DNA from: Tubulanus polymorphus
Taxonomy: Eukaryota; Animalia; Nemertea
Assembly: GCF_964204645.1 (NCBI RefSeq)
Contig: NC_134036.1
Coordinates: 9,961,859 to 10,025,858 of the forward strand
Direction of reading: 5' to 3'
DNA length: 64,000 bases
The notes below the pieces were generated by a model, which was not told the origin of the DNA, did no database searches, and worked only from the letters and a program-made list of their open reading frames with translations. Numbering within the stretch: position 1 is the first letter of the stretch; each line of letters opens with the position of its first letter. Of this stretch, positions 11,401 through 64,000 are shown piece after piece. The translations under genes and the position numbers were made by a program.

Positions 11401-11520
11401 TCAACCCTTAAACCGTTTTTGCAGGCTTCAACAGCGGGAAGATAAGAGGATTCAACCATATGACCTTCTCTCCAGGCGTCGACGGACGGACTGTTTTTAC
11501 AGGCCGTAACTGCAGAATCT
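1450..11520 (-). repeat. Coding 51-bp minisatellite, roughly 195 units, encoding 17-aa Cys-rich repeats (approx. MVEYCQLPAVADCKNSR)
   Basis: 51-nt periodicity of ...ctaccatacgactgt...; long minus ORFs 2640-5480, 5893-10185 and 10134-11459; higher-order periods of 357, 408 and 459 bp. Confidence 0.97.
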
Positions 11521-12816
11521 TGGCGGGATTGTACTGTATCATTCTCTCTGGAGGGCTGAACCGAGAAACAAACTCTTGGTGGTCCCTCTACCTATCAATA
11601 TTACAGATATCAAAATGCATAAGAAATCGGGTAGTAGTTTAAGTGTACGTACGTACATGGCAGTGAATAAATAATTAAAAGGTTATAGTAAGCAATTATA
11701 TGGATTTCCCAAGTTCCCAGGGGGTCCACGGGCCTCGAGTTTGTATAATTCATTAACACAAGGAAGGAGGCGTAGACCTTGGTTTCCTGAAACTGTGAAA
11801 CTCCTTCAATGTATTGTTATACGGTCCTGCAAGCAGCTGTCAATTTGCTGACTGAAAACCCCCTCAGACAATCACTGTTCGGACTTCGAAATCCGGGTGA
11901 ACACATTTTTTGCAAATGGTGAATGGATGATCTTGTTTTGGGAAAATGCATACAGACGGCAGGTTGATAGCTTCATTAGTTTCTAGTTCTCACATCTGAT
12001 GCTGCAACTAATATGGTAAACTCGATATGATAAATAGTCTATTATAAACCAGACTGTTCCTTGTAAAATCGTTATATATTTCTATATGAAACTGATTTAC
12101 AGACATGTTGGGTCTTTCAAATTAAGTATTTAGATATCTATATGTTCCGCATACATAATTACCATAGTAAATATAGGCCTATACAGTCAAACCCTGTAAG
12201 GACGATTCGGGTTTTAACAAAACCTTAGAGATACGATGAAGTACATAAGGCCCCAAGAGGCAAAATGTCAACATTCGCTTTTCATAAACGATGCAATCTG
12301 TGGGTTACATTCGTCAAAGAATACACTCCTGGCACAATTGTGTTTTACACAGTACAATTGTGTTTTATAAGTACCGTAACAGTACTACCGAAGACAGGGA
12401 GATGGCAAGAACGAATACCTCGGATCAATATTTTGCATTTGTCATGGAATGTGGAATAAAATTAATTTGAATTTAGTGTAATTTTTTCCAATAAAATAAA
12501 ACTCAATTTGATTATTTTTGTTCAATAATATAAAAATTGACTTGGATTTTATATTTTTTGCCGTAGGTTGAATTTGCAATTCGAGTACATAGAAAATCTG
12601 TATAACAAGTTTCCACTGTATTGGAAGCATCAAACTCATATGCACTACATGAGAGATCAATACTCAATTGGACCGCAATATTGGTAGTCAATGATGTTTA
12701 ATAGCCCAGTATTTTCCATATCAGAGATAGAAATAACCATGGGAATTTGAAAAAAAGTCCTTTTGGGTCCCTCAAACTGCGGATTTCCCTATGTTCAACA
12801 ACTAATACATTCCCTA

Positions 12817-23170: not shown

Positions 23171-26100
23171 CGTATTGGTCTCGTAGCAGACAGCATTTTA
23201 AAGTATGCTGGGCTAGATGGTGTAGGCTTATTTGAATGGACAAGGATCGTGTGCCCCGGAGGAACCATTGAAACATTGATGGAAGGTAATTTCTCGGTTC
23301 AGTACTGATTTATATTGTTCATTTTCATTGGGTTACTGATTAGTTGTATATTACAGAATTGAAAAAGGTGAAGATGCTGAATGTGGAACAACTAATCGTC
23401 AATGTTGGAACAAATAATATGACGCGTGATGTCCCGCTTGAGATTGTTCTGCGAAGACACGTTGAATTAATTCGATTGTTGCTCTATAAATGTACTGGGA
23501 CCATCATTGTACCAGCTCTTTTTCCTCGATGTGATGAGTAAGTATCAAGAATGGATTTTTCTTGAAGTACTATATTTATCATCGATGTAATGATTTTTAA
23601 ATTTCTTTCTTTTTTAAAGTTTCGATGCTGACACAAATATATTTCATTACAATGAAATGCTTCACCGCGAATGCTTTACACTTGGTGTAAAGTTCGTTGA
23701 TTTTCACTTCTCAAGAGATCTCCTTTCACCGTAAGTAATCGTTTAATTTTAATAAGCCCAGTAGGTTATGTGCATTTTTTCGCGATTTAAACTAACTTGT
23801 TTTTTTCTAAATTTTGTGATCTAGGACTGACTTGTTACACCCCAGCCGTAAGGGAAATCAGTTCATAAATAACAGGATAATGGAACTACTGCTATTGAAA
23901 AATGAAGATGAAATGTACGTAGAATTGCATTATTTTATCCAATTACCAGGTATGCAAACTACATAAATTTTATGATTGTACTGGAAATAATGAATGATTC
24001 TTAATCAGGTGCCCTCAATACTTTCCATATGAGATTGAAAAGATGCAAAGAAGTAGAGCAGTCCATCGACGAAAGGTAATCATTTAGCATTGATATCCTA
24101 GAAAATGAATGATTTGCAATTAGTTTTTATAACTTGAATACGAAACCACGTTATTCAAAATCCTTGCATTGAATTAATGAATCATATTGATAGCTGATAG
24201 CAAAAAACAAATTGAAGGATGATCAAGCAAGAGCATGGGATGATTCAACAATAGTGGTAAAGTTGTTTTCCTAAGTGATTTGTACGTGATTTATCTTTAT
24301 AAAGTTAGATATATTTTAACAGTTTTTTTGTATCCTTCAATCCAGTATAGCAGTTTTGACGTTGCGCATCATACAAGGAAACAATTCTGTTGTGAAGATC
24401 AAAGAGCCTTTTTCACATTCGACCAGGTACATATCATCTCAAGAACTTATGATTTAATATTAGTTTGGTCACTTTTATTTCACAATTACCTAAAGGCTGT
24501 GCATGCACAAATCTGTCTTTTTTTTCCAGTACATGACTAAAATTGATGTGGCTGGTGTTGCTATTTGTTTAAAGCCTAAATTATTTACTCCTTTTTATCA
24601 GACTAAGAACGTGAGTAATATGTTTCTCGAAATGAAATTATAGAAATTCATTGGTATTGGTATGATTTATGCTGTAAAGCTTTGTTTTCATATTCAGGGA
24701 TGCTACAATAGAAGTTGTCACAATACTAAAAGATTTAACAGAAAAAGGAAGTCAGTGGAACATGTAAGTTTGATGCCCTTTCTGCGAGACGCGGGTTCAT
24801 TTTTGTTATTTTTGCTTAGATGTTGAAGCAAAAACAGATTAATGTGCTCTTCCACATTAGGTTATTCATCCACAGACGGATCCTGCTGACTCGACATGTT
24901 TTTGCGGAGTTGAATTCACCAATTGGAAAGATCTTCTAGACCATGTTAGTTTAAACCATACTGAAATGTAAGTACAACATAATTCAATTAATTTAGTACC
25001 TACAAATCTAAATGACTTAATGCAAATGACTCAGAGATACCCATGTTTTATGTTAGGCCTATATGGGTAATTTCATACTCTATCTATTGATATGTCTAAA
25101 AAAAGTGAGTTGATAATGTGTATTTCAGGCGGACAATGGAGGAAGAAGGAAAGGACGCGGCTTGTGACAATTTCTCGGAAGGAACGATAGAGGAAGCAGA
25201 AAAGATGCAGGAAGATAGTTCGAAAGAAAGGATAGAAAGATTAAAGATGCAGGAAGATAGCTGGATGGAAAACAAAAAACAGCTAAGTATCACAGGTGGT
25301 GGAGGTATCGAACCAATCATAATTGATGATAGTGATGAGAATGATTCTGATGATGAACATGTATGTAGAAGAAATTTTAGTTACAATCCAACAGAAATGT
25401 GCCTCAATGACTATCAGTTTTTGAAAATTCCTCCTGTTATGCCATCAAAGGTCACGTCATTCAGAATTTGTGACATGTCTAATTCATGTCATTTGGCTGA
25501 TGATGCCCCCACTATGCCCCACAAAAATCAGTTGGAGGACATAAAAGCACAGATGCAGTCAAGGATTGTCCGTGACCCTTCCATTAATATCCATGTGAGA
25601 CTCGATACAGGCTGCTATTCTATTGATCAGATTAATAGGTTTCTTTTCTTACATTATGCTAAAACCAAACAACAAGATCTTTTTGCCATGAATCTTTGGG
25701 TAAATAGTAAGCCTTTAAGCCCCACTGATTCAGTCGATTGGGAACAGATTCAAGCATTTTCAAATATGCTCTTTTCCTTAAAACCCTCTCAACAATTTCC
25801 AGTTGGTAATAATAATAGCGTATCTGTATCAGAACTTCAGACGATGACTAATCAAAAATGGTTTGAAGGATCTGTGTTAAATGCTTTTGCATCTATGATA
25901 AATGAACAGTACTGTAATATTCATGCATTTATGATGCCACTAACATTTGATGCTAAGAAATATGTTTTAAATTTATATAAAAGATTCAGTCCTAATCCAC
26001 TCATAAGTTGTGATGAACTAATTTTTTTCCTGCATGTTGGCACCCAAAACGATTTCGTATTTTTAAATTCTTATGGACATGTTGTTGCCAATCATTATGC

Positions 26101-29100
26101 ACTAGCAGTTTTTTACCCAAAAAGTAACAAACTGTGTTATGCTGATACACTAGCATGGGATTGTCCAAGGGAATTTAAAAATCATTTAAGATCTGTTTTG
26201 AAAGGTTTGAATTGCCCTGATCCTGTTTATATCCACCTCCATGATCCTCATTTTGTTACTGAAAATTCAGTGCATGTATGTAGTAATAATTGTACTAGTT
26301 ATTACCCACTCCAATCATGTTCATCTGTCTGTGGCCCTGCTACATTAATTGGTGCTTGCATTGCAGCCTATTATGAAAAGGATATTTCAAGTGTATTTTC
26401 ATCTCCCAATGAATTATCTTATCTTAAGAACATTTCTAACTATTCTGATTTTGTTAGATTGATATTGATTAATTGGCTTATGAAACATCTAATTGATATT
26501 ACTCAACTCTTCTCAAAGTCATCTCAACCTACTGCTAATAGTACTACTTTCTCTAAGATATCACGATTATCTCGCAGACAGAGACATAAACGATCAACTG
26601 AGTCAAATAATACACTAGCTAGTTCTGAATTAAAGATGTCAGACTCTTATATTGCCCCTAAAAAAAGCAAATCAGTCTTAACTACAGCCAAATCTAAATC
26701 TACACCAATTTTGAATAATGAATCAACACTTGAATCTACAGCAATTTCGAATTATGAATCTGCAGCAATTTTGACTAATGAATCAACACCAATTTCGAAT
26801 AGTGAATCTGCACCAATTTTGACTAATGAATCTACACCAATTTCGAATAGTGAATCTGCACCAATTTTGACTATTAAATCTACACCTGAATCTACGCCAA
26901 TTTCGAATAATGAATCTACACCTGAATCTACATCCTCAATTTTGAATCCTCAATCCTCATTAACTATAAATTCAGCTGAACCATTAACTTCCCATATTAA
27001 TGGTTCTAAAACTACTATCTCCCATCGCATCAGGAGAGGAAAGCATTATCTTGAAGTTGCTTTTCATTCAACTGGCAGTAAGACGAAGTATAAAAGTTTT
27101 CATTGTACAGACCAAGGTACAAATGACCAGGTAGCCATTGACGCTATCAAGAAATACCTCAACAACCAGAATCCACTTAGTGATGAATGGGTTGAAAATG
27201 GGGAAGTAATGACTGGTGCTGACACAAAATATTATTTCGATAGATTCACTTTTGATTTTACAAAAACAGTTCGTCTGCATAAGAATGTGCGGCCTTCATT
27301 TGTTGGTAACCAGACAACGATGAAAGCTTCCTTAACATTAAAAAAGAATTGGCAAACCCATAGATTAGATAATAAATTTGAATTTATTGAGCCAATTGTT
27401 GAGGATACTTCTCAATTTGTGGCTGCAGAAATGCTCATAAAATGTTCGTCAAAGTCTTCAGTTTGTAAATCATCATGTGGATATTATCTTTCAAAGTTGA
27501 ATATGTCCAGTAACATCACTAATTGTCCCTCATGTCAAATTGACGTTGTTTTAAATGATAAACAATGTATTCATTGCTCCATTACCATGTCTAACAAATG
27601 GAGGAAAAATGCTGATGGTGAAACACTTTGTTCCAACTGTTACAACTATAAGCTGAAGAATAAACGTGATCGTCCTGTGAAGTTAAGGCAGCAGTTTGAG
27701 CCAAAAAAATTAATTCACCCTCATTTTATGTGTTATTGGGCAACGAAACTTGTATTATTTAGTACTGATTTATCCAAGTGGAGAATCTTCAGCAAACCAC
27801 TTAATGGTCAATATCATGACAATATTCCTTTACAAATTAAAAAGCGACCTAATTTATCTACTAGAGATAGATGGGATGAAAATAGAGTCATGATGAAAGC
27901 CACAGCAATGAAGGTTCTTTCTGCCACCAATGCTCACAATAACCTTCATGTATCAAATGTAAATGATGGCGCCGGTCATGACCATACCCTAGATCAAATT
28001 TCAAATAGATTGAAATATATTGATAAATCTTCGATAAAATTCAAGTCTCAAGACGAAATACCTATTCTAAGTTCTGATTGGAGAAATACTGAAAAATTAT
28101 TAGAGGGTAACTATGAATCTGTCCTTTTATTTCAACGAGGGGATGCCACACTCAAACGTAATTATCACATTATTCTCTCTGATCCTCGTTCTCTGGAACA
28201 TTTATCCAACTTTGGACAATCTGTCATTGGTATTGACGTGAAACATGATTTCAATTCGTGGAAATTCAAAACTTCATTTGTAACTTTTGCAGACAACAAA
28301 AATGAAGGACGTATTGCTGCTGCATCAATTAGTAGTGATGAAGGGGGGCTACTCATGCAACTACCATCCAGTTAGTTCTAGCCAATACACCATGTAAAGA
28401 CGAAAAATGTAATCATCCATCTGAATTCTATATATTTAATGATGGCAATGGTTTTTTCAGAATCAAGCCATGTTCATCAACATCTAGATTTTGTCCTTTT
28501 GTACAACATGATAAAGATGCAAGTCTAAAGCAAGGAGCATCTGACAATAATCTTAAATCAGTACTATGTAATTTTCATGTCCTGCAGTGTATTCGTCGCT
28601 TCATGAATGAAAATCAAGAACTTCGCTTATTTTGCAAGCCTCTAGAAACTGGTTTCAAATGCATTATGAGATCATGGGATGCTTCCTCTAGAACTGATAT
28701 AGCCAATTCATTTATTAGTTTTATTGAGAATGATATTTCTTTAGACCTTATGTCGCAAGATACAAAAACATTATTTATTGATTACCTAAAGAAGAATTGG
28801 TTTAGTTCCCAAATTTGGTCTGATGCATTCAATGCTGAATCAATTTATCAGTCAGACCAATCTAACAGAAATAACCCTTTGCTATTAACTGATAATATTA
28901 CTGAGCGCAAATTCAAACAAATAGATGATGTCTACTTAAGTGGACACCTAAATAAACTGATATCATCTTTTGTACGATTACTGTTTGAAAATGTTTTTAA
29001 TGATGAGATCAAAGCGACAAATATGAACAATCTCCAATTTAAGCAACTTGACCAACGAGTTAAGAATATACGTCACCTTGAAAAGATAGAAAAGTGTTGC

Positions 29101-30798
29101 AAAAGAGCCTTTGATTTATTACAGAATAATGAGACTTTAAAATATGATGAAGAAACTAATTGGTTTGTTGTGAAGAGTTCTTCACGAAAGAACTTAAATA
29201 GGTTAGAAGATAATGATAATTTTTTCAATGGTGATACTCAATATACATTCAATCAGCTTGATGTTTTAGAAGAAAGATTCCCCGATAAAGTATCAATATC
29301 CGAGGAACATTCATATGACATTTCAAAAAAATGCCGAAGGTACATAGGAAATTTAGATTCAATATCCAGTCGTATCTTATTCAATTACGTTATTACAATC
29401 GTTCCTGAAAATTGTCTTTCATACGTAGATGGTAATTGCCATTTAATCAATTTGAAACTAGGTATATGTACTTGTGAAGCTTTTATAATGATTGGACAAC
29501 CATATTTTTGCAAACATCTTTTTGCCTGTTTTGCCCAAAAAAACAATATAACCACAACGAAGGCTTTAATTGATGCATATAAATTCCACATTGTGGAGCC
29601 TCTGCCAACTTACAATTTTACTCGACAAAATAGTTCTGTTTCATCTACCCTCATTGATAAGTTAAAAGATCATTCCCACATTGCTAGCTCGAATGATATC
29701 AATGCTGCTCGGAAAGGGCACATTCTAAGTATTTTACATAATGAAAGCCACTGTGGAATTAAGTTAATAAGCGGACGACCTGCCAAACGACAACCTCACA
29801 ATATGGCTCATAGGCGTGCTGAGGGTCCAATCAAGGACAATCAGGTTGCCATAAACCTTCCTGAACTTGAAGTGATAGACCCTTACTGCCCTAAGGTTAC
29901 AATGCCTAAAGATGCTGAGAATGCAAGACACGGAGGGCGAAAGATAATTAGACCTGCTAACAGAGGTGTATCCTTTTCTGCTATGGTTGAAAATGCTGCT
30001 ATCAAACTAGGTAAAAAAGCTAAAATATCAGAAATTGAAACCATAGACTCCACTGATCCAGATCCTGGCAATAATATCGAATTTTCAGCAGATATTTTAA
30101 GTCAGAATAAATCATCCTTACCGAAAAAATCAAAAGATACCAAACCAAAAGATATTAAGTCAATACCAGTTGTTAAAAATGACTCGAAGTCTGTTTTATT
30201 TGAAAAAAGTATTGTCTGTTCCTTTTGTATTAAAGACAAAATAAATCCTCCATATCTTTGTTCATGTCGCAGGGAACTAGATAGGCACATATCCACTTCT
30301 CATTCATCTTTGAAACCTATCTCATGTGCTATTTGTTGGGCAGATGGGGTTATTAATTCATATGCAAGTGAAACATTCCTTCAAAAGCACATTCGTATTG
30401 AACATAATCATCATAAGAAAAAATCTATTGTAATCGATTATAATAATAGAGATGATTATCTCAACAGTTCTCCTATTACAGAAATCAATAATTCCAATTC
30501 TGAAAAAGAATTAGAAATTCTTATAGATCAACCTGGAAATGCAGGCCTCCAAAACCTAGCAAAATTGAAACTAGATAATCTTTTGTCATCAAAAGTTGAA
30601 AAAACCCCTTCTCAGTTAGTTGCTGAAACCTGCCCTGTCTGCCACAAAAACTGCAATGCTAATCCTAAGAAAAAGTCCACATTCTCAATTGAATGTGATA
30701 ATTGCCATAGATGGTATCATTGGAAATGTGCTCCAATCAATGAGGCTCCTCCTGAACATATCAGGTGGTTTTGTTTTCATTGTGACCCGATTTCCTAA
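23171..30798 (+). CDS. MULE multidomain protein: SGNH hydrolase - C2H2 - Ulp1-like protease - GATA finger - DDE transposase - SWIM - C2H2 - PHD; one frameshift
   Basis: Phase-consistent exons 23171-23285, 23357-23537, 23620-23730, 23825-23914, 24009-24075, 24194-24256, 24346-24426, 24530-24610, 24698-24763, 24861-24967, 25129-30798 (possible ATG at 22293-22295). SGNH blocks VADSI/PGGTI/VGTNN/DLLHP; Ulp1 NHYAL/YADTL/QSCSSVCG; GATA C-x2-C-x17-C-x2-C; MULE IGIDVKH, QHDKD, CNFH, NITER; SWIM CTC...CKH; PHD at the C-terminus. Frameshift in G6 at 28343-28348. Confidence 0.82.
26697..26946 (+). repeat. Coding 24-bp repeat (ESTPISNS/ESAPILTN) in the linker of the MULE protein
   Basis: gaatct(a/g)caccaattt(t/c)ga repeated in frame. 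Confidence 0.8.
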
Positions 30799-52249: not shown

Positions 52250-53483
52250 GTGAAAAAGTATTGGGATGGAATTCAGTGAAGATACTTTATTCATGATCAA
52301 TAAATACCCACCTAAGATTCTGAGAGATTCGTTGACTACGAAGCTTACAAAGCGTAATGTACTCAGTGTAGTGAGTGAAGTGTATGATGTCACCGGTTAT
52401 CTCGGTCCGTTTTTACTCATGGCTAAAGTCAGAATGCAAGAAATATGGAAATTAAATTTGGATTTGGACGATGATTTACCCTGCAGCATCAAAGAATTCT
52501 GGATCGAATTTCTGAAAAAAATTAAAAGCATTGACCAAGTGTCAATTAGAAGAAGCTTAACTCCTGAGGATGCGATTGGAAAACCTACGTTACTAATTTT
52601 CTGTGATGCAGCGCAATCCGGATACGGAGCTGTTGCTTACGTGAGATGGCAGATATCAAATGGAACATATGAATGTCGATTTGTCTGTTCAAAAAATCGT
52701 GTTAGCCCATTAAGAGCGTTAAGCATACATCAACTAAAGCTAAACTCATGTGTAATTGGAGCACGGTTACATGATAGTATACTTTCTGGATCTCGATTGG
52801 ACTTCGAAAAATCGATCTTATTTACTGATTCGAAAATTTGCTTAGCGTGGATTCAGTCCCAGTCTAGGAATTTGAAACCCTTCACTTCAGTAAGAGTCGG
52901 AGAGATTCATATGCGAACGAAAATTTGCGACTGGTATCATGTACCCAGCTCGTTAAATGTGGCTGATGACCTTACTCGAGGTTTACATTTATCGCAATTG
53001 TATGGTCGTTGGACGACTGGAGACTCATTTCTCTTTCGACCCGAGAGAGAGTGGCCATTCAACGTGGGTCAGGATCACATTTAATTGAATGATGGTGATA
53101 ATCGGGTACTGCATGATTCAATTATCAAGAAGGCTGCAGTAACAGTCACAATCATCAACCCACCAGAATTTAACGAAAAATTCTCATCGTTTGACAAAGC
53201 TATTAGAGTGACAGCATATATATTGCGTTTCATATCTATTGTGAAAAATCAGATGAAAGTTGAAAAATCAAACATTCCAGTCGATGAATTTAATGTCGCA
53301 AGAGAGAAACTGATAGTCTTATCTCAGAGAACTCTGGAGATGAAGAAGCTAAAATCGTTAACGCCTGAGAAAACTGACAAAGGAATCATCGTAGTAAGGG
53401 GACGAACTGATTCATACGAACATTACCGTCCACCAATATTACCGTACTCCGCCTACCTGTCATATTCGATAGTACGGCAGTAA
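52250..53483 (+). pseudogene. BEL/Pao LTR retrotransposon pol fragment (RT end plus RNase H)
   Basis: TKRNVLSVVSEVYDVTGYLGP, IFCDAAQSGYGAVAYVR, SKNRVSPL, FTDSKICLAWI, WYHVPSSLNVADDLTRG; in-frame stop at 53082; no LTRs seen. Confidence 0.92.
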
Positions 53484-53562
53484 TTGGAAAAGTAGGCTTT
53501 CAGATCAGAGGTCGAAGGTCGAGACACCACTCATCACCACAAGTAATTTTTTCCCCTAATAA

Positions 53563-53888
53563 ATGGGAGATAGAAAAGCATTCTTAGTAACAATAAATAA
53601 CAGAATTAAACCAGCAAAAAACAATTTGAAATAAAAAAGTTAGTTGATGTTACAAAAGAAATTGAACATAAAATATTGAAATTAGAAAAGATAAAAACTA
53701 AATATGGAGAGAAAGTATCAGCAAATTTAAGCTACTGTAATGTTAGTACATCGCGAGAATTTAAAGTATTTTTTCCTGATTAATGGGTTTCATTGAGTAC
53801 AGAGGAATTAAAAGATTTAGAAGGATTTAAAATAATCTATCATGGGAAAAATGAAGACGGTCATCATGATTTAGAAATTGTTGATTAA
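53563..53888 (+). pseudogene. Small Polinton-like virus gene remnant on the opposite strand
   Basis: Same upstream signal taattttttcccctaataaATG; MGDRKAFLV...; frameshift and internal stop. Confidence 0.45.
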
Positions 53889-54869
53889 ATAAAAAATAAA
53901 AATAATGAATATCTAGAATCCAAAATGACCTTAGTCGTTTTACGAACAACTACAATCATACAGTCAAACATCTGTTACATGTTATTATAAGAGAGTGCTT
54001 CATTTGAATATTGATCAATCAAACAGGTGTTGCACAACGTTGTTGTCATATTGGATAGCTAGCAGTTATATAATAAGCACGCAGTACATACAACACACAC
54101 AGGATACCTTCTCTCTCTCGTGATTAAAAGGAATATTTCAGTGTTTTTGAGGTAAGTTTTAGCAAAATTGCCCTATCCTCGACCTACAGAGTTTTCAGGG
54201 GATAAGCATCCAATTATTGAAAGGCGCCACGGGACGCTTATCCCCCGTCATTTCTACTTACACCCCCGCGACCCACGTCAACCGGGATCTCCTTCAATGA
54301 TTGGCAGAATTCACAGTATATTAAAGGCGCCTAATGTAATTTCTACCAATATCGAAATTCGAAACCGAAGGAGAAACCCGGAGAGTGGACGAAGGTGCAT
54401 TTTCAAAATGCCTCTGCTGGCCAGAGCTACTCCAGTGTTGGAATGAATTGCCTTATATACTTAGCTAAAACACCTAAGTAAATGTTGTTGGTGCTAAAAA
54501 AATATGTGAAATTTGAAATTATAAATTATTCCGAATGAAAAGAATATAAGAATGAAAACTGATAAATGAATTATGGATTTTTAACTTAATTATGATATAA
54601 TTTTTAATCACTATGTTAATTGATTAACAAATTCAAATATTCATTTTAGCATCACACCCATCTTTCAATTTAAGAAAAAACTAATAATAAGAAACGACTG
54701 TAATACAATATTCAAGTAAAAACAAAATAAATTAATAAACATAATGAATATCTAGAATCCGAAATGACTTATCTGGACAATTTAATTGCTCCGCATAGAT
54801 AGACAAAAGTAGTGAGATATTCAATTAATTAAAAAAAAAATTATTTTTTTTTGCTTTCTTTCTAAAATA

Positions 54870-55226
54870 TTAATCCATTTTTTTTATTGTCAATTTTGGA
54901 ATTTCATAATTATTTTCATTTTTGATAGCAGTTGTTTCAGAATTATTAATATCATGAATTTTATTTGATTTCTTATACCAATTACACCCAATCAAAATGA
55001 ATACAATTACAAATCCAACCGTAAAATATAGACATTTATCAAATATTCTATTATCAGAAGGAGTAGAAATAACAATATTTTGACAATTTTTATCACTTCT
55101 TTTTTCTTTTACAGCTTTTTTATATTCTTGTGATTTAATTCCTAATTGTCGAGACCATTCAATTTGTTTCTGTGATCTCGGTTTTTTCTTCACAGTTAAT
55201 TCCTTCACTTCTTCCACCTTGTTCAT
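54870..55226 (-). CDS. Hypothetical viral protein with basic N-terminus and one TM helix
   Basis: 118-aa ORF; TAAATG start; hydrophobic LYFTVGFVIVFILIGC. Confidence 0.65.
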   Translation of the reverse strand: MNKVEEVKELTVKKKPRSQKQIEWSRQLGIKSQEYKKAVKEKRSDKNCQNIVISTPSDNRIFDKCLYFTVGFVIVFILIGCNWYKKSNKIHDINNSETTAIKNENNYEIPKLTIKKMD

Positions 55227-55772
55227 TTATTATGGAAATATTTTTACTTTCAATATTTGAAAATGTTATAACTCCAGTTGATAATAATGTCATAAATCCA
55301 CCTAATTGAAATGATAAATATCCAATCCATTTATTTAATTCAGTCATAACTAAATAGTCATTTTTTAAATCGGAATATAATCTATTTTCATCTTGAATTG
55401 GTAGTATATAATTACATAATTTACTATAACCTTTTACTACATTTTCTGATATCGCGTCATTAATTCTAGCTGTTCTCGCGGCTTCATAAATCTTAAATAA
55501 TCTAATAATTTCATCTGATTTCATTGTATCTAATTCATTAGTTAAATTCAAGTTAAATTTTTACCGACAAAATTTTTACATTTTCCAGATGCTATTAATA
55601 TTTCTAATTGATGTTTACAATAAAGATAATATTCATAATTATTATTTGTTGTAACATTATTTAAAGCACCATCATCTGGAATTAATTGGTTTTCTGTTAT
55701 TCCTAAATCATCTAAAGTTTTTTCAATTGGAACATCACCATTTTTAGATTTTATTTTCTTTTCACCTCCGAT
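55159..55772 (-). pseudogene. Hypothetical viral protein with lost start codon
   Basis: tatataaATC-GGA at 55772 (apparent ATG>ATC); break near 55550; continues as ORF 55159-55551. Confidence 0.55.
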
Positions 55773-55802
55773 TTATATAACAAATAAATTAGTTGTGATG
55801 TT

Positions 55803-56075
55803 GCAACTAGAATTCAACTAGAATGTAACTAGAATTCAACTAGATTAACAAGCTAGTTGAAATATTGTTGTTTTTGTTTATTTCTTCTTAAATCTAGTTG
55901 ATTTTTGGTCCAACTACTAATAACTAGAATTCAACTAGAATGTAACTAGAATTAAACTAGATTAACAAGCTAGTTATAATATTGTTAAATCTAGTTGATT
56001 TTTGTTACAACTACCAATAACTAGAATTCAACTAGAATGTAACTAGAATTCAATTAGATTAACAAGCTAGTTGAA
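55803..56075. repeat. Three copies of an ~55-bp block built from 11-bp aactagaat(tc/gt) units
   Basis: aactagaattcaactagaatgtaactagaatt..actagattaacaagctagtt at ~55805, 55922 and 56019. Confidence 0.88.
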
Positions 56076-56076
56076 T

Positions 56077-56685
56077 TTAAATAAATTCATATTTAAATGG
56101 GTGTTGTAATCTAATTAGTAATTTTGATCTTTTAATATTTTTCAACTTATCCATATATTCATTATGTAAATCATGTGGAATAATATCATTTTCCTCAAGT
56201 GCATTTTTCATCGATTTTCTATCTTTATTGTAGAATAAAACTAGAAATCTTATATTCTCCCTAAAATCTTTAACAATTGAATTATATTTTTGATTTAAAA
56301 CCCAAGTTGTTATCCCAAAATGTCTGCCAGAAAAAGCTAAATAACATAACTCACTTTCTCTAACTTTTGAATCATGTAAATTAGCACAATCATCTATAAT
56401 GAATAATGTATTTGATCCTTTATAAATATCAATTGCTATTTTTATACAATTATCTAAATTTTCTTTTACTGTTTTAGGATCTAATATAATAAATTTATTA
56501 TTTCTAGTAATATTTCTATCATAAGTTTGATTAAATTCATATGTTGGGCAAAATAATACTATATTATCAAAATAGTTTTCATAAACAGTTTCTAATAAAT
56601 TTAATATAAAATAAGTTTTTCCACAATTTGTAACGCCAGAAATTAACATATTATGAGGCTCAAATATAAATAATTCCTTATTCAT
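56077..56685 (-). CDS. A32/FtsK-like DNA packaging ATPase
   Basis: Walker A LISGVTNCGKT, Walker B FIIDD, GRHFGIT..LNQ motif. Confidence 0.92.
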   Translation of the reverse strand: MNKELFIFEPHNMLISGVTNCGKTYFILNLLETVYENYFDNIVLFCPTYEFNQTYDRNITRNNKFIILDPKTVKENLDNCIKIAIDIYKGSNTLFIIDDCANLHDSKVRESELCYLAFSGRHFGITTWVLNQKYNSIVKDFRENIRFLVLFYNKDRKSMKNALEENDIIPHDLHNEYMDKLKNIKRSKLLIRLQHPFKYEFI

Positions 56686-57817
56686 TTATATATTTTTAAT
56701 TTTACTTGATAATATCCATTCATTGAATTTATCTGGCCATCCAACCCATTTTACTAAAGAATATTTTTTTCTTTTAATAGTTTTTGTTTTTAATACTTTT
56801 TCAATTTTATATTCTTGTTCTAGATTTTCAGTAGTTAAACTTAATTCTTCTTCATAAAAGTAGCCATCAACTTCTTCACCATCTAAATCTTCTAATTTAT
56901 AGACATATGGTTTTGTTGTTATTACCTTTTTTATTTTATATATTTCTCTAGTAAAATTTCGATCGTATCCTTTGTTAATCTTTATATCTTTTTATACTTA
57001 GAAATTCTAACATTTTGACCAACTTTAAATTTAGGTTCACCAAAATCATCTACAAGAAATGCTCCATATAAATTATTCCAAACAATTTCAGCATTTTCAG
57101 GTTTTCTAGCATCAATAGGTTTCATTCCAATAGAAGAATGATAAGAATTATTATATCCTTCTATCAATTTTGGTAAAACATCAATCCATTTAAAAGTATT
57201 ATTTGCTGTAAAATATTTCCACATTCTTGTTCTTAATGTTCTATTAAATCGTTCAACAACTGCAGCTTTTTATCCGATTTTGTTGAAAAATATTTAATAT
57301 TATGATTATCTAAGAGTTCATGAACAAGTGAATTATCAAACTCTTTTCCATCATCAAATTGTATTTTTTCTGGTTTTACTTTATCATCCGAAAGAAATTT
57401 TCTTAAAACATTTGATGTTTGTACAGCATCTTTTCTATAAAGTGGGAAACTCCATACATAACGACTAAAAATATCAATTATATTCAATAACCACCAATAA
57501 TCATCATTATCTTTCTTAACATTTTTCATATCAATTAAATCTCCTTGCCACTGTTGATCTACATAACTTACCATAGTTTTACGAGTTTTATATTTTCTAA
57601 CAATTTTTTTATGTGTTGTATATGTTGGTTGTTCTAACATAAATTCATTTATATCTTTATATTTAACTAAATTTTGTGGGATTATCTTATCTAATTTATC
57701 TTGTTTTACTTTACTCCATATATTTTTGGTAGAAGAATAAGCAACCGAACTCTCAGGGTTGTAATATAAATTTCTTAAATATTGTTCTTTAGTATTAGGA
57801 GTTTTTTTACCACCCAT
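56686..57817 (-). pseudogene. Retroviral-like (rve) integrase with C-terminal chromodomain; frameshifted
   Basis: WQGDLIDM, IDIFSRYVW, QFDDGKEF, VVERFNRTLR, YNNSYHSSIGMKP, VKWVGWPDKFNEWI; frameshifts at ~57270 and ~56985. Confidence 0.9.
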
Positions 57818-57847
57818 TTATATATCCTTAATTTTTACTTTATATTT

Positions 57848-59096
57848 CTAATATTGAATACTATCTAATTGTGAATTTACAATATTTAATTGTGCATCAG
57901 ATATAATATAAATGTGCATTTTAAAATTTTTGTCTCCTCTTTTCTTTTTCATGAATAATTGTATTCCATCTTTAGTATTCTGTAGTTTTTCTTCCAGAAC
58001 CATGTAATGAATTATCCTCTGTTGTTCTAAAATCTAACCATAATGCATATTTATTGCCGGTATAATAATCAATTTGATTAATATTACAATTTTCAAATGA
58101 TTTAACTTTTTCATTCATAAAATGTTTTCTAATTTCTGGCCATTGATCAATCATTCTCATTCCTTGACAAAATATTTTATTTGCTATTCGTTCGATAGTT
58201 ATTTCTACTTTTGTTATTTCAGGATTATAATAATTATCAACATTTATTGCAGCATTAGTATATGTTGCAATGGTAAAGAATATTATTATACCTTTAATAG
58301 ATCTTCCTGGGAAGTTAATATTCTCATTAATTTTTTACATCATTTGCATTAATAGTTACAGTTTTAAATTTATCAATATAATCATATAATAATGAAAATC
58401 CTTGATTGTATTGAGTTTGAATTGTGCTAGCAATATTTTCATTAGTGACGGTTTTATATTCTAAACATATATTCGATAATTTATAACCCATATCTTTAAC
58501 AACGCTAGATAATACAATTTCATTAACAGGAGCAAATGTTATCTCAAATATAATATCTTCTTGAATTGCGTATTTATATAAAGGTGCATTGTTATTTATC
58601 AATTCAAAGTCTAATGGGATTTTATATTTGCTTCCATAAATCTTTTTAATCAAATTATCTGTGGCACGAGTTACTATTGCGTCATTACTTCCTGATCTTA
58701 ATTTATTATGGTTTTCGGATTGAATACCCTGAAATATCATATTATTTCTATTTTCTTTAGTTAACCATAAATCTTTATAATGCATAAATAAATTATAATC
58801 ATCTAATGAGAAAACTGTTTCTGGACCAATCTTTATAGTTAATTTTTCAATCAAATATCTTCCAACATTATCAACAACATAATTATTATTATTACCGATT
58901 ACTTTTATATCGGCTGATAAATAAATACTATTTGGAACGTAAAAAGTATTTTGTGTTAATCTAGGGATTCTAACATACAAGTTTCATCAGGATTAATATT
59001 AGAAGGGTTATGAGTAATTATATGATGTGATCTTTCTGCTTTAATAGCATTAGATATTCTAGAATTCTTAGAAGGACTTATATAACTCCCACTCAT
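57848..59096 (-). pseudogene. Polinton-type major capsid protein; frameshifted
   Basis: MSGSYISPSK...YVRIP...YKIPLDFE...LSNICLEY...KYALWLDFRTTEDNSLHGSGR...DAQLNI in several frames; position beside integrase and ATPase. Confidence 0.75.
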
Positions 59097-59130
59097 TTAT
59101 TTAACAAAAAAATTAGTTATTTATTTTTTA

Positions 59131-60570
59131 TTATTTTTTTTCTTGATATCTTTTTGATATCATATTCACTAACCCAAAAATAATAGCACCTACAACTGTA
59201 ATTAGAAATAAAATAATATGTTCAGCAGCAAAGTTAATAATGTTTCCTGCAGATTTCAATATAAAACCAACAATTGATGCAATAATTCCTGGCAATGCTG
59301 CAGCGGATTTTTTAGATAGTTCCCATAAATATTTTGCTAATTTCTTTAAACCATCTTTAACTTTATCTTGTATAGAATTATTATCTGGGGATTTATCTGG
59401 TTTATTTGGAGTAGGAGTAGATTTTAAAGCATTTGATATTGCTAAACCAATTGTTGTAAATAACATAGTTACAGCTGTTAGAATTGAAAGAATTGTTATT
59501 CCTTCAAATTTAAATGATAATTTTATTCTATCTTTCAATGATATTTTAGAATCTGGTTTTATTAGATATCGTTTAAAAACATCTTTTAATCTATTAATAT
59601 TATAATCATATGATTTTAACAATAATTTAATTTCTTCTTTCTGTACTTCTAAATTATCTTTTAAATTATTAATTTCTTTTTCTAATCGTAATTCTTTTTG
59701 CCTATATTCGATTTCATCAATTACTCGATGATCTAAATCAGACTTTAGTTTTTCTATTTCTTTATTTGCATTAGTTAATTTTTTTTCCAAATACATAATT
59801 TTTTGATCTCTTATACTTTTATTATGTGCAATTTTATCAGCTTTATTTCTTATACTAATAATTTCTCTAATTGCTTCATCAGAAAATATATCTAAATCTT
59901 CTAATTCTTGATCTGTTGCATCAAGTAATCCATTCGGTAAAAGTTTTTCAATTGAAACTTTATTTGATTTAAGTTTACTAGTTTTGGAAGTTATATTCTG
60001 TTCAGAAGTTGTTTCTGTTTCTGATTTCTTTTTGATTATTTCAAATAATTCATTAATTCTTTGTTTTAAATACGTCTATATTATCATCTATTTCTTTTTG
60101 TGTAACATCAGTTATTTCATTACTATTACTTATTCTTTTAATTTTATCTGGTTTTAAACTTTTCAAAGTTGATTCCGCTAATATTTTTTTATTATTTTTA
60201 GAAGTGATATCAATATAATAATCACCTTTCAAACGATAATAACATTTACCATTATCTAAAAATTTTAATTGATATGCTAAAAGTCCAACGTCTTCATTAT
60301 TTATGTTAAGTTTAGATTTTTCAATTAAATCTTCTAATTTAGGTATTAAATTATCTAAATCTTCTTTTACTAAACCTGGGTCTAAATTTTTTCAGGATTT
60401 AATTGTGATTCTGCATTTTTAATATAATCAGGCATATTTAAATTATTATTATATCCGTGCTCATTACCATCATTAAAACTTCTTTCATCAAAATCAGGTG
60501 GTTGTTCATCACTTATACCAGGTTCATCAAAAGGATCCATTCCAATATCTTCTCCACCTTCTACATCCAT
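59131..60570 (-). pseudogene. Acidic N-terminus / coiled-coil / multi-TM viral protein; frameshifted
   Basis: ORFs 60382-60570 and 59131-59796 with coding-like sequence between them; hydrophobic helices at the C-terminus. Confidence 0.6.
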
Positions 60571-60586
60571 TTATATAATAAAAAAA

Positions 60587-61971
60587 TTAAAATTTAAAAT
60601 ATAATATTCCTCCGATTACAATTCCTATACAAGTTAAAGCTAATTTAGTATTTTCATGGGATTTATTATCATCATTTAGTTTAATTATATCATGTTGAAT
60701 ATTATCAGTTTTTATATTTTCTGTAGTATTGTAATCTTTTATTTTGGAATCATTATCCAATTTAATATTCTTAGTTTTAGTTTCTGTTGATTGAATATGT
60801 TTTTTATTTTTTTCACCTTCCATTAATTTTGCAGCAGTAATTATCTTTTTATTTATATCATTTAATCCAAATGAATTATTTATTGTTGCTGTTTTAATTA
60901 GATTATTGTAACCAATTATGTTTCCCATCTTTAATACTAAATCATTAGAAATAATAAATAGATTAGGGCCGATACAATGATTTAATCTAATATGTGATTT
61001 ATCTAAATAATTTTGATATCTTACAATGTTTTCTGGAATCGATCTATTTTTATCATTATGAATGGATCTTCAAATAATACTTTAAATTGTTTCTGCGTAT
61101 CAAATGATGTATTTAAATTTCCAATTATTGTGGATCCTGTTTCAACTTGCGCACCTAAAATACATATCAAATAAGTTCTAATAGATTGATTTATTCTTTC
61201 TATACTTGATTTAGTAAAACCTTCACTATTTCTAAAATGAAATAAACCCAACCATTATTGTTTTCTTGTTACATTATCATAAAATGTCGGTAATTTATTG
61301 AAATTTAATGTTTCTAAATCCTTAGTTTCTATTTTACCATAACCTAATTTATTATTATAGATATTATAAAGACTATTAGATGGTATGGGAAGTGCACAAT
61401 ATTCTGCAATCTTTTTAGGGCAAGGAAGTGATCTTATTGTTCCAATTTTCGTTCTAAAATCAGAATTATTTATATCTATATTAAATTCATTACAAATTTT
61501 ATAAAACTTTGACAAATTAATATTATTATCTAATTCTTTAAAATACCTAGATCCTGGTAAAGGACACTCTAATTCATTTAATATTAATCTTATTTGAAAG
61601 TATGTATGAAATCTAAATAAACTTTGAATTAACTTATATTTAGAATTATTCAAATGATTATTCCAACTAATTCCACAACCTGTTGTTGCACAATAAACAG
61701 CTAAATTTAATTGGTTCTGCCAATACTTCATATTAGATTTTAATAACCATTGTTTTTCATCTTTCAATTTTTTAAAATCAATTAAATATACATGAAATAT
61801 ATTTTCCATCTTTGCATTGAAATTATAAGTTTCAGTAACATAGATTTCTAAATTAGTTAATGAATCTAAAACTTCATTTCTATATGTAATATCTTTATTA
61901 AAATCTATTGCTGGAATATTATATTTAATTGATTTATTATATTGGAAAGCTTTTGGAAAACTATCTACCAT
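60587..61971 (-). pseudogene. Polinton-like virus protein of unknown function with C-terminal TM helix; fragmented
   Basis: ORFs 61255-61971, 61021-61251 and 60587-60928 are colinear; only the first has the TAAATG start; motif WQNQLNLAVYCATTGCGIS. Confidence 0.6.
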
Positions 61972-61987
61972 TTATATAATTCAAAAA

Positions 61988-62422
61988 TTAATAATTTATT
62001 AATTCTTTTAATAATTTATCTTGTTCTTCAACTGTTATATGGCCATTTAAACTTATTATATAATCTAGTGTGTTCTTTAATTTATTAATTTCTTTTATAT
62101 TAGTTTTAATTTTTTCTTTATTACTTTTTATATTTAATTTTGAACTTATACCAGTTAAAACACTTGAGCTTAATCCTAATACGCCAATTGATATAGCTAA
62201 AAGTGTTAATGGGCTGAATATTGCTAAAAATGTTATTACAGAACTAATTGTAACCGAACCACTTATAGTCAAATAATATATAATTTTACTTTTTAAATAT
62301 TTTTTCTTTTTTATCTTTAAGTCATTTTCAAATTCTAATATTTGTTTTTCTAAATATGTTTTTAATTTAGTTTTATTTATATCATGAGTAATAATATCAA
62401 TATTATCAACTTTATCTTCCAT
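61988..62422 (-). CDS. Viral membrane protein (two TM helices flanked by coiled coils)
   Basis: 144-aa ORF; TAAATG start. Confidence 0.7.
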   Translation of the reverse strand: MEDKVDNIDIITHDINKTKLKTYLEKQILEFENDLKIKKKKYLKSKIIYYLTISGSVTISSVITFLAIFSPLTLLAISIGVLGLSSSVLTGISSKLNIKSNKEKIKTNIKEINKLKNTLDYIISLNGHITVEEQDKLLKELINY

Positions 62423-62441
62423 TTATTTAGAAAAAAAATTA

Positions 62442-62864
62442 CTAATTAGTAAATTTATATGCTACAAATATAGCAATCACTGTTCCACCTAAAATCCATA
62501 TTATTTCATATTTCTGTTGTTCTTTACTTGGGGTATAATAATCTGATAATTTAGGTTTGTATAGATGTAATTTTTCTTTATTGGTTACTGCGTTATATAT
62601 ACTCATTGCATCATCAACTGATAGAAAATCGCTATGTGAAATATTCTGATCAATTAATTCTTTATTGATGTTATCCATATAGTTTTGTCTCTTTTCTCTA
62701 TATTCTTCTGCAGCTTTATCATATTTCTCTAATGCTAAGTTATGTCTTTTTTGTTCTGTTAATGATCCATTTTTATCAATATGTTTAAATAAATAACCAC
62801 CACCAGCAAATGCAAAAGCGTTGACAATTGCCGATCCTATAATAGTTATAATTGCAGAAGCCAT
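62442..62864 (-). CDS. Small viral protein with hydrophobic N- and C-termini
   Basis: 140-aa ORF MASAIITIIGSAIVNAFAF...KRHNLALEKY; TAAATG start. Confidence 0.7.
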   Translation of the reverse strand: MASAIITIIGSAIVNAFAFAGGGYLFKHIDKNGSLTEQKRHNLALEKYDKAAEEYREKRQNYMDNINKELIDQNISHSDFLSVDDAMSIYNAVTNKEKLHLYKPKLSDYYTPSKEQQKYEIIWILGGTVIAIFVAYKFTN

Positions 62865-62888
62865 TTATTTAGCAAAAAAATTATGCAT

Positions 62889-63099
62889 TTATATGGGAGG
62901 AATATATTTTTGTTTTTCCAAATAATCAATAGGTAAATTAGATAAAGTAACTGCTAACGTTATTTTTAAAATATCATTTATATCAAATCTATCAACATTA
63001 ACACTTCCCATTTTAAATACTTTTTTTGATACCAGTGAATAACCAACAGTTCCAACTGATAGTAATGCGCCATTATATAATCCAGTTATTATCACTCAT
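62889..63099 (-). pseudogene. Small hydrophobic viral protein; frameshift just after the ATG
   Basis: TAAATG start at 63099 is out of frame with ORF 62889-63095. Confidence 0.55.
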
Positions 63100-63240
63100 T
63101 TATTTATCAAAAAAATTACTATCATCAAAATATTTAGTTAACTTATTTATGATTATTTCAACATTTATTTCATTACTAGTTTCATTTGTATATATTTCAA
63201 TTATTATTTTTTTAATATCATCGATGATAAAATCTTCATC

Positions 63241-63456
63241 TTATTCATAAAATCTTAAAGATTCTCTTATTAAATTAGTAATCTTTTTTACATTTAAAGT
63301 TTCTTTATCTATTGTTGTTTCATACTCGAATGTTGTTTCATTAGAAAATGCAATATTTTTGATACGTGTGATTATATCATTAACGTTAAATTTCATTTCT
63401 TTCTCACGTTTGAAATCAAACCCAAAACATATACTCGGTCCAACAGTTATATTCAT
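63241..63456 (-). CDS. Small hypothetical viral protein
   Basis: 71-aa ORF; TAAATG start. Confidence 0.5.
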   Translation of the reverse strand: MNITVGPSICFGFDFKREKEMKFNVNDIITRIKNIAFSNETTFEYETTIDKETLNVKKITNLIRESLRFYE

Positions 63457-63472
63457 TTATATAATGAAAAAA

Positions 63473-64000
63473 TTACTCTTTACATCTTATAATTAATTCA
63501 TATATCACAGGAAAGTTATTCAAATCAATTAAATAACCATTATGATTTCTTATTTCTAATTTAAAATTATTAAATTTAGGAATGCAAGGTTTAAAATCAC
63601 ATTCAGCTAAATTATAATTTATTTGCGTTCCAAATTGTTTAACATTCTTTAATGGTAAAATGTTTAATATACTAGAATTACAAGTTATATCTTTAGTTGC
63701 TTCAAATTTTTTTGTTGGGTCAATTAAATTGCAATAAATATAAAAATGTGTAAAAGGTATTAAGCTTGATCTACCGTATATGTTTTCTCTAATATCTTTA
63801 TCTGGAGGAATTCCTAACAGTTTAGCTATAGGTTTTTTTCACCATGTAAAGATATCTTTCTATTGTATGTTGATAAAGTTTAAAATAATCATTATCAAAC
63901 TTTATTTTAATTTTATTAGAGCTCTCACTTTTTATGAATTTAATATTAAATTTAGAATCACTACCTAATCTAATGCGAGCTTTTCTATTAATTTCTTGCT
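63473..64000 (-). pseudogene. Minor capsid (penton-like) protein, C-terminal part
   Basis: Manual translation: IAKLLGIPP...HFYIYCNLID...ILNILPL...FKLEIRNHNGYLIDLNNFPVIYELII; frameshift in the T-run at ~63833-63839. Confidence 0.7.

Follow-up and report, generated by a model that had tools for sequence, protein, structure and literature searches.

A candidate poxvirus-type late promoter at the gene starts of an endogenous Maverick/Polinton in the nemertean Tubulanus polymorphus

The window analysed here, a stretch of 64,000 bp of contig NC_134036.1 of the nemertean Tubulanus polymorphus (NCBI RefSeq assembly GCF_964204645.1, positions 9,961,859 to 10,025,858, forward strand), harbours at its right-hand end (53480..64000) a left-truncated and decayed copy of a Maverick/Polinton, which continues past the right end of the window. 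All intact gene starts placed in this element carry the hexamer TAAATG over the start codon, preceded at a constant distance by a T element, and this two-part signal likely works as a poxvirus-type late promoter. We lean towards the reading that the genes are transcribed by the poxvirus-type late machinery of a co-infecting helper, in a virophage-like life. Poxvirus-associated Polinton-like viruses are already known (PMC11296320); an earlier report of a poxvirus-late-type start signal in Mavericks was not met in the literature searched.

Gene starts of the element

Twelve gene starts were placed in the window by means of open reading frame lists and homology to L001, the closest of the relatives fetched. 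TAAATG was found at all 11 intact starts (minus strand, positions 63456, 63099, 62864, 62422, 61971, 60570, 59096, 57817, 56685 and 55226; plus strand, position 53563), nine of them in the long form TA(A/T)ATAAATG, in agreement with the first-pass annotation of this DNA, which had described the hexamer at 11 starts, mostly in that form. Its further claim that a twelfth start had decayed to TAAATC was confirmed at position 55772, whose L001 orthologue starts at the canonical motif. The signal is common to capsid, ATPase, integrase, membrane and accessory genes alike.

The annotation had proposed a check for enrichment over an AT-matched background, and the counts exclude chance. TAA precedes 14 of the 222 non-start ATGs on the minus strand of the element (Fisher p 2e-12 against the starts), and in a viral control, composed of first-ATG open reading frames of at least 100 codons in 80 of 120 viral loci with four selected matches removed, TAAATG was present at 46/305 AT-rich starts (GC < 0.30), giving a binomial p of 9e-10 for the 11/11 of the element. 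The motif scan of viral_contigs yielded at least 80 loci among the matches listed, with one match each, none of them resembling this element.

At positions 62864-62891 of the window two TAAATG hexamers lie 24 bases apart, the first overlapping the stop codon of the previous gene and opening a seven-codon frame that ends at the second. An 875-base contig (runs X6 and X7) matches nothing but the promoter-like stretch at 63096-63116, over 21 bases with one difference, and 18 bases at 53618, which may be due to chance or to another motif-bearing element.

Conservation of the signal among relatives

The alignment of the packaging ATPase drew on 97 of the 120 homologues listed and served to fetch 80 metagenome and five genome loci; L084 and L085, short Walker-A chance matches from bacteria, were left out of all counts, leaving 83 loci. 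Starts in these relatives were taken as the first ATG of open reading frames homologous to L001 genes, and 75 of the 83 loci gave at least one, the other eight none.

L001 itself carries TAAATG at 14/14 starts. At 22 of the 75 loci, 21 of which have a GC content of 0.20-0.39, the hexamer stands at half or more of the scorable starts (53/57), compared with 2/53 in 21 other loci under GC 0.40 (background 3%) and 2/88 in 32 GC-richer loci. L008, with a GC content of 0.20, has TAAATG at 0/4 starts, and loci at GC 0.36-0.39 carry it at nearly all conserved starts (L007 4/4, L011 3/3 and L016 2/2).

In a maximum-likelihood ATPase tree of 57 rows (56 loci and the window, loci with a broken or cut ATPase being left out), the TAAATG label needs four changes, versus 15.6 in shuffles, none of 500 shuffles being as low. 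The group of 22 loci around the window defined by this tree has TAAATG at 45/59 starts, and the other 53 loci at 12/139. The signal is kept across loci whose ATPase is as little as 43-50% identical to that of the window, and the broken PolB-like frame of L058 also has TAAATG at its likely start. A single origin followed by losses was not demonstrated, because the root of the tree is unsure.

Position of the T-tracts

Positions were numbered upstream from the first T of TAAAT. T is found at -11 in 12/12 window starts and at -10 and -9 in 10/12, and TAA occupies -16 to -14 in 10/12. T at -11 was also present in 15/19 starts of L001 and L002 and in 32/42 starts of more distant loci; in TAAATG loci it reaches 42/57, versus 35% at other ATGs (p 7e-9).

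The first-pass annotation had placed a T5-8 tract right after the previous stop codon at most starts and had taken the tracts for gene ends of the poxvirus early-terminator type. Such tracts do stand ahead of 8/12 window starts, but only about five lie within 3 bases of the previous stop. Moreover, the gap between the upstream stop and the ATG is variable (-68 to +34), whereas the distance from tract to TAAAT is constant, and T at -11 is kept in 29/33 starts without a nearby same-strand stop and in 18/28 tandem starts. The early terminator of poxviruses, TTTTTNT, is expected after gene ends and absent inside genes. In the window it is present ahead of only 5/12 starts and also occurs inside the intact ATPase gene (56335), as it does inside 5/16 L001 genes. 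Early terminators were thus rejected as an explanation; being anchored to the downstream TAAAT and kept where no gene ends upstream, the T-tracts are read as part of the putative late promoter.

Late promoters of vaccinia virus have TAAAT, then G, over the start codon, a strongly conserved T at the tenth base upstream and further Ts (PMC11980589), with a T-containing core 5-7 bases ahead of TAAAT (PMC5294985). The element shares with them the TAAAT over the start codon, the T-rich core and a strongly conserved T, and differs in having this T at -11, one base off, and an extra TAA at -16 to -14.

Head-to-head genes and start-codon context

Among the 38 head-to-head gene pairs listed, seven pairs in six loci have TAAATG on both genes, and T is found at -11 in all 14 of these starts. 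In two pairs both genes share one central TTTA(T)AAA. The ATG-to-ATG spacing is only 6 bases in L006 and 4 bases in L007. A poly(A) signal or a re-initiation site would be of no use at such starts, which nevertheless keep the motif.

The annotation had also held that stop-start coupling does not explain the motif, the TAA not being the upstream stop except at the integrase/ATPase junction. The former statement agrees with the relatives, in which the TAA closes an upstream frame of at least 80 codons at just 1/45 homology-anchored starts and in which divergent genes carry the motif too. The latter is correct in general and needs amending at 63099, where TAA is in frame with a decayed upstream piece, though the corresponding L001 junction has a 19-base gap.

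T at -3 from the ATG, the Kozak position, is a poor host start context. A was found there in 3/57 starts of TAAATG loci, versus 35/53 and 50/88 starts of other Mavericks (GC < 0.40 and GC-richer, respectively). Giving up this A in the DNA would make sense if transcription begins inside AAA and slips into an A leader.

Proposed transcription by a helper virus

In the proposed mechanism, the T element about 11 bases ahead of TAAAT and the TAAATG over the start codon would together form a late promoter for each gene, and a poxvirus-type helper would supply the RNA polymerase and late factors that transcribe active family members in the cytoplasm. In vaccinia, late transcripts begin within AAA and gain a 5' poly(A) leader through slippage (PMC5294985, PMC11980589, PMC6211774). 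If the T before AAA were untranscribed here as well, the mRNA would have A at -3 despite the T in the DNA, and each promoter would serve a single gene whose mRNA lacks a 5' untranslated region, which fits the intergenic gaps of 0-34 bases. The polymerase would come from the helper, because Mavericks are not known to encode one of poxvirus type and none was found in the scanned open reading frames. By analogy with mavirus, integrated copies would stay silent until a helper infects and would then be expressed, replicated, packaged and re-integrated, so that the family would spread in bursts. As precedents, Maverick-clade elements occur in entomopoxvirus occlusion bodies (PMC11296320), and virophages share late promoters with their helpers (PMC6428243).

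Several points weigh against transcription by a poxvirus-type helper. A late-only signal on every gene does not account for the way in which an integrated nuclear copy would first get to a cytoplasmic factory. The TAAATG loci scanned yielded neither a poxvirus polymerase subunit nor any other poxvirus-specific gene, the scans covering 30 + 32 + 12 open reading frames and then 72 of the 75 remaining non-core frames of AT-rich loci (the other three being among the 12). The conserved T lies at -11 here versus the tenth base in the vaccinia review, possibly a difference in counting. The set of 22 TAAATG loci is defined by the motif itself, many loci contribute just one or two starts, and the head-to-head counts are not independent, because four of the six loci belong to one clade. 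TAAATG starts are also found in the giant-virus contigs L098 (3/5, one of them a selected match) and L126 (4/6). Furthermore, the hexamer that ends at the start A is AATAAA, TATAAA, ATTAAA or AGTAAA in 51 of 61 cases, a count that is partly forced by TAAA and AT-richness. Finally, yeast cytoplasmic plasmids use a TAAAN initiator with their own polymerase (PMC6211774), and about half of 49 coral polintoviruses are expressed, with no helper named for those colonies in the available text (PMC11131425).

Alternative explanations

It is unlikely that the element is, or always was, transcribed in the nucleus by host RNA polymerase II without any helper, the motif being a TATA-like box or else a poly(A) signal (AATAAA or a related hexamer, plus a U-rich element upstream of it) that belongs to the preceding gene. 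In its favour, TAAATAAATG contains AATAAA, the hexamer counts given above fit such a signal, the host has many copies of the family, and transcripts of coral polintoviruses occur in host transcriptomes (PMC11131425). However, head-to-head starts, with no upstream gene to end, keep both the motif and the T at -11, and a poly(A) signal at this place would cut inside the first codons of the next gene. The T at -3 is unfavourable to host translation, while other Mavericks keep A, and no splice acceptor AG that could serve trans-splicing lies ahead of the ATGs. A TATA box sits 25-30 bases ahead of the start site (PMC5294985), and transcription would here begin inside the coding sequence.

A poxvirus-like RNA polymerase that would make a helper unnecessary, encoded either in the unseen part of the element or on a cytoplasmic linear plasmid resident alongside it, is quite unlikely. 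Just 10.5 kb of the element are visible and other copies extend further left, and the yeast pGKL elements combine a TAAAN initiator and slippage with a poxvirus-related polymerase (PMC6211774). Nevertheless, no polymerase match was obtained among the window pieces or the scanned open reading frames of relatives, and none of the longer PolB-bearing relatives L024, L025 and L054, which, however, lack the motif, shows an RNA polymerase. One small subunit by itself would suggest that a helper's enzyme is being tuned and would not speak for autonomy. The upstream element is, besides, T-rich and late-promoter-like, whereas pGKL promoters resemble early ones (PMC6211774).

A helper from among the cytoplasmic large DNA viruses other than poxviruses, whether related to asfarviruses or from a lineage not yet described, whose late initiator is similar, is quite unlikely as well. 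The late promoters of African swine fever virus (ASFV) are also two-part, with slippage (PMC7163114, PMC5294985), and a few giant-virus contigs carry several TAAATG starts. Yet AT-rich giant-virus contigs overall have TAAATG at just 20/131 starts, the late initiator of ASFV is TATA, the late motifs of mimivirus and of Cafeteria roenbergensis virus (CroV) differ, and in a review of several families it is the late genes of poxviruses for which TAAAT over the start is described (PMC5294985).

If TAAATG were a stop-start junction, with genes of a polycistronic mRNA translated by coupling or re-initiation, this would suit the same-strand gene block with its short gaps, the genuine TAA-ATG junction between integrase and ATPase, and the gaps of 0-4 bases in 9/28 tandem starts of relatives, but is very improbable given the single case in 45 starts and the presence of the motif on divergent genes. 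A compositional artefact of a very AT-rich element (GC 0.22-0.25, the intergenic DNA being AT-richer than the coding background) is scarcely credible, AT-richness alone being rejected as the cause by the in-element control (11/11 versus 14/222), by the viral control (46/305) and by relatives such as L008 and the loci at GC 0.36-0.39.

Identity of the element and its relatives

The gene pieces in the window were named by homology to the near-intact L001, whose ATPase is 82% identical and which has the same genes, mostly intact, in nearly the same order. By this gene content the element is a Maverick/Polinton (Polintoviricetes) and not a lavidavirus: it possesses an rve integrase, an A32-type packaging ATPase and, as seen through the intact L001 orthologue, a major capsid protein (MCP) of the double-jelly-roll type. 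The structural model of the 415-residue L001 MCP has a predicted local distance difference test (pLDDT) score of 92 and matches the double-jelly-roll capsids of iridoviruses, chloroviruses and others; in the same fold searches, virophage capsids ranked below those of nucleocytoplasmic large DNA viruses, with 8-12% identity. Pfam gave no virophage family match in the window pieces or in the open reading frames of relatives that were scanned. The name Polinton-like virus with an integrase, given in the first-pass annotation, describes correctly an endogenous, integrase-bearing and capsid-coding element; Maverick/Polinton is nonetheless the better name, considering the rve integrase and the protein-primed PolB carried by relatives with the same virion genes.

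No PolB was found in the window's part of the element or in L001, both of which are truncated. PolB motifs were recognised in the relatives L024, L025 and L054, which share the virion genes, and a broken PolB-like match in L058, these calls being made from sequence motifs, as PDB and family searches did not recognise PolB. An Ulp1/adenain-type cysteine protease had no Pfam match in the window pieces or in the scanned open reading frames of relatives, these elements being incomplete, and no terminal repeats occur in the visible part, the left end of which is truncated while the right end lies beyond the window. Searches of viral_contigs by ATPase, ATPase alignment and MCP alignment found no relative.

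L001 also contains a deoxynucleoside kinase gene (10340-10981, minus strand, PF01712) with a TAAATG start, which is absent from the window. GC-richer relatives with the same virion genes have, instead of a recognisable PolB, a large helicase/endonuclease-VII gene (L030:9967-13596, minus strand, with matches in L043, L045 and L069); the large L030 gene was considered as a PolB and rejected, being helicase-like.

State, boundaries and gene content

Raw reads from a separate study under the same species label (X5) located the left junction near 53480, and not at 53540 as first annotated: 783 reads have loose ends at 53479 and continue leftward in different sequence, with a step in depth at this place. 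Read depth per bin was 190-1076 over the element versus 30-94 over the flank, itself repetitive. By identity, 1397 reads on the element were at 99% or above, 16393 at 95-99%, 20002 at 90-95%, and 9108 lower. The window copy is thus a dead, truncated member of a multi-copy Maverick/Polinton family. Short partial contig matches to the element (four in X7, five in X6, three in X8, and none in X9 and X10) have no bearing on expression in either direction.

The GC content of the element is 0.22-0.25 from 55 kb on, versus 0.31-0.47 in the rest of the window. Of its 13 genes, 12 lie on the minus strand and one on the plus, and four have open frames. The features, from left to right, are as follows.

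52266..53483, plus strand: BEL/Pao retrotransposon remnant in the flank adjoining the element (PF05380, E 4e-42)
53544..53565, plus strand: promoter-like element (TAA, T6, spacer, TAAATG) ahead of the single-strand-binding-like gene
53563..53888, plus strand: broken small gene, orthologue of L001:125-469 (71% identity; found in 20 relatives)
53890..54724: 833-base insertion flanked on both sides by a 35-base direct repeat (D11) and missing from some other copies (53890-54724 joint seen in X5 reads and X1 contigs)
54870..55226, minus strand: open-frame gene for 118 residues that likely include a membrane segment; TAAATG start (46% to L001)
55159..55772, minus strand: conserved Maverick gene of unknown function, broken, with degraded start at 55772 (homologues in 28 loci)
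55804..56072: tandem repeats, 11-base units inside 97-117-base units, between the ATPase gene and the next gene
56077..56685, minus strand: A32-type genome-packaging ATPase, intact, 202 residues, the TAA of its TAAATG start being the integrase stop (PF04665, E 3e-13; 193 homologues)
56686..57817, minus strand: rve integrase of retroviral type, split into three, with a chromodomain at its C-terminus; TAAATG start (PF00665, E 1e-10; PF00385, E 4e-5)
57848..59096, minus strand: MCP gene in four pieces, 64-77% identical to the L001 MCP; TAAATG start with T7 tract (element 59094-59115)
59131..60570, minus strand: conserved coiled-coil/membrane gene split into three; T7 tract ahead of its TAAATG start (60568-60589)
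60587..61971, minus strand: three pieces of a conserved Maverick gene of unknown function (27 loci); TAAATG start with T5 tract (61969-61990)
61988..62422, minus strand: gene for 144 residues with two membrane helices, open frame; TAAATG start with T8 tract (62420-62441); weak SLATT match under the cut-off (PF18142, E 0.007)
62442..62864, minus strand: conserved membrane gene for 140 residues, open frame (23 loci); TAAATG start with T7 tract (62862-62883)
62889..63099, minus strand: small membrane gene (75 residues in L001) with a break close to its start; T7 tract ahead of its TAAATG (63097-63118)
63100..63456, minus strand: broken gene, N-terminus orthologous to L001:1333-1713; TAAATG start with T6 tract (63454-63475)
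63473..64000, minus strand: 3' part of a gene orthologous to L001:565-1329 (59% identity), without family match

BEL/Pao elements, such as the remnant at the left junction, mark animal genomes. The product of the gene at 53563..53888 may be a phi29-type single-strand-binding protein, which we offer as a lead only; its nearest named atlas family was PF17427 at 0.87, carried by 44% of that cluster. That the gene at 63473..64000 encodes a minor capsid or penton protein is a guess from its size and place, with no tool match. The conserved 442-residue protein gave a low-confidence model (pLDDT 47) and no match in fold or PDB searches.

At 54825-54852, just past the stop of the gene at 54870, an A run, a 3-base spacer and a T run form a palindrome between converging genes, possibly a two-way end signal. 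The only long intergenic gap is filled by tandem repeats both in the window (55804-56072) and in L001 (9085-9409), at the same place and with unlike sequence, which may indicate an origin or a binding site.

In the flank, five long open frames (2640-5510, 5893-10224 and 10134-11591 on the minus strand, and 25109-28375 and 28342-30798 on the plus strand) belong to no clear family, having only PHD finger and spurious-looking DAHP matches, and are probably other mobile elements; the first three sit in a GC-richer block. A PDB search with a 1443-residue flank open reading frame gave no match.

Comparison with known systems

The element resembles the Mavericks/Polintons described as adintoviruses (PMC8502044) in its rve integrase, A32 ATPase, double-jelly-roll MCP and multi-copy endogenous state, and the Hydra and Stylophora maps in the supplement of that paper bear SLATT- and SSB-like accessory labels similar to genes of the element. 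The PolB, protease and terminal repeats of Mavericks/Polintons are absent from the part of the element seen here. In the Maverick/Polinton literature searched, mainly open papers, no such start motif is reported, and the word promoter does not occur in the available text of PMC8502044, PMC11161782, PMC11131425 and two 2026 preprints.

The entomopoxvirus-associated Polinton-like viruses AHEV_PLV1/2, CBEV_PLV1 and Ca_PLV1 (PMC11296320), compared here by description only, are small and capsid-coding, have been proposed as poxvirus hyperparasites, and include two members of the Maverick MCP clade. They were found in occlusion bodies and all have a cysteine protease, with no rve integrase reported. 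The available text of that paper mentions neither promoter nor motif, and its supplement no promoter.

Mavirus and Sputnik (Lavidaviridae) have late promoter motifs in common with their helpers, and mavirus, which inserts by means of an rve integrase, stays silent up to infection by its helper (PMC6428243). Unlike the element, they have protist hosts, helpers of the Mimiviridae with other motifs (PMC5294985) and a different capsid lineage. The yeast plasmids pGKL1/2 share the TAAAN initiator and add 5' poly(A) by slippage (PMC6211774); they differ from the element in possessing their own polymerase and an early-type upstream element and in lacking a capsid and an integrase.

TATA-type Mavericks and implications

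AT-rich Mavericks without TAAATG (L008, L010, L025, L040, L042, L046, L053, L060 and others) often have TATA within 10 bases of the ATG. This was the case at 27/53 starts versus 219/3392 (6.5%) other ATGs, a background that includes coding DNA, so that the comparison is a lead only. The late motif of asfarviruses is TATA, and an intermediate promoter has also been described (PMC11788076, PMC7163114, PMC12917281). One TATA-type Maverick, L025, harbours a gene for a Pox_VLTF3-like late transcription factor (5746-6387, minus strand, PF04947, E 1.5e-16); VLTF3 in polintoviruses has been reported previously (PMC11131425).

It is an old question whether animal Mavericks/Polintons live as autonomous viruses, as transposons or as parasites that depend on a helper: no RNA polymerase is known to be encoded by them, and the papers searched do not describe their promoters. 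With a poxvirus-type late promoter on every gene, the helper hypothesis could be tested directly, and the start signal offers a sequence signature from which the helper of any Maverick might be predicted. More tentatively, animal Mavericks might largely be virophages of cytoplasmic large DNA viruses, their start signal naming the helper: T(-11)...TAAATG would indicate poxviruses, including undiscovered ones whose hosts have no known poxvirus, and TATA asfarvirus-like viruses. On that reading, such provirophages could be an inherited anti-poxvirus defence in animals. Transcription by a poxvirus-type helper would carry provirophages of the mavirus/CroV type over from protists into animals and would show in which hosts to look for unknown poxvirus-type viruses.

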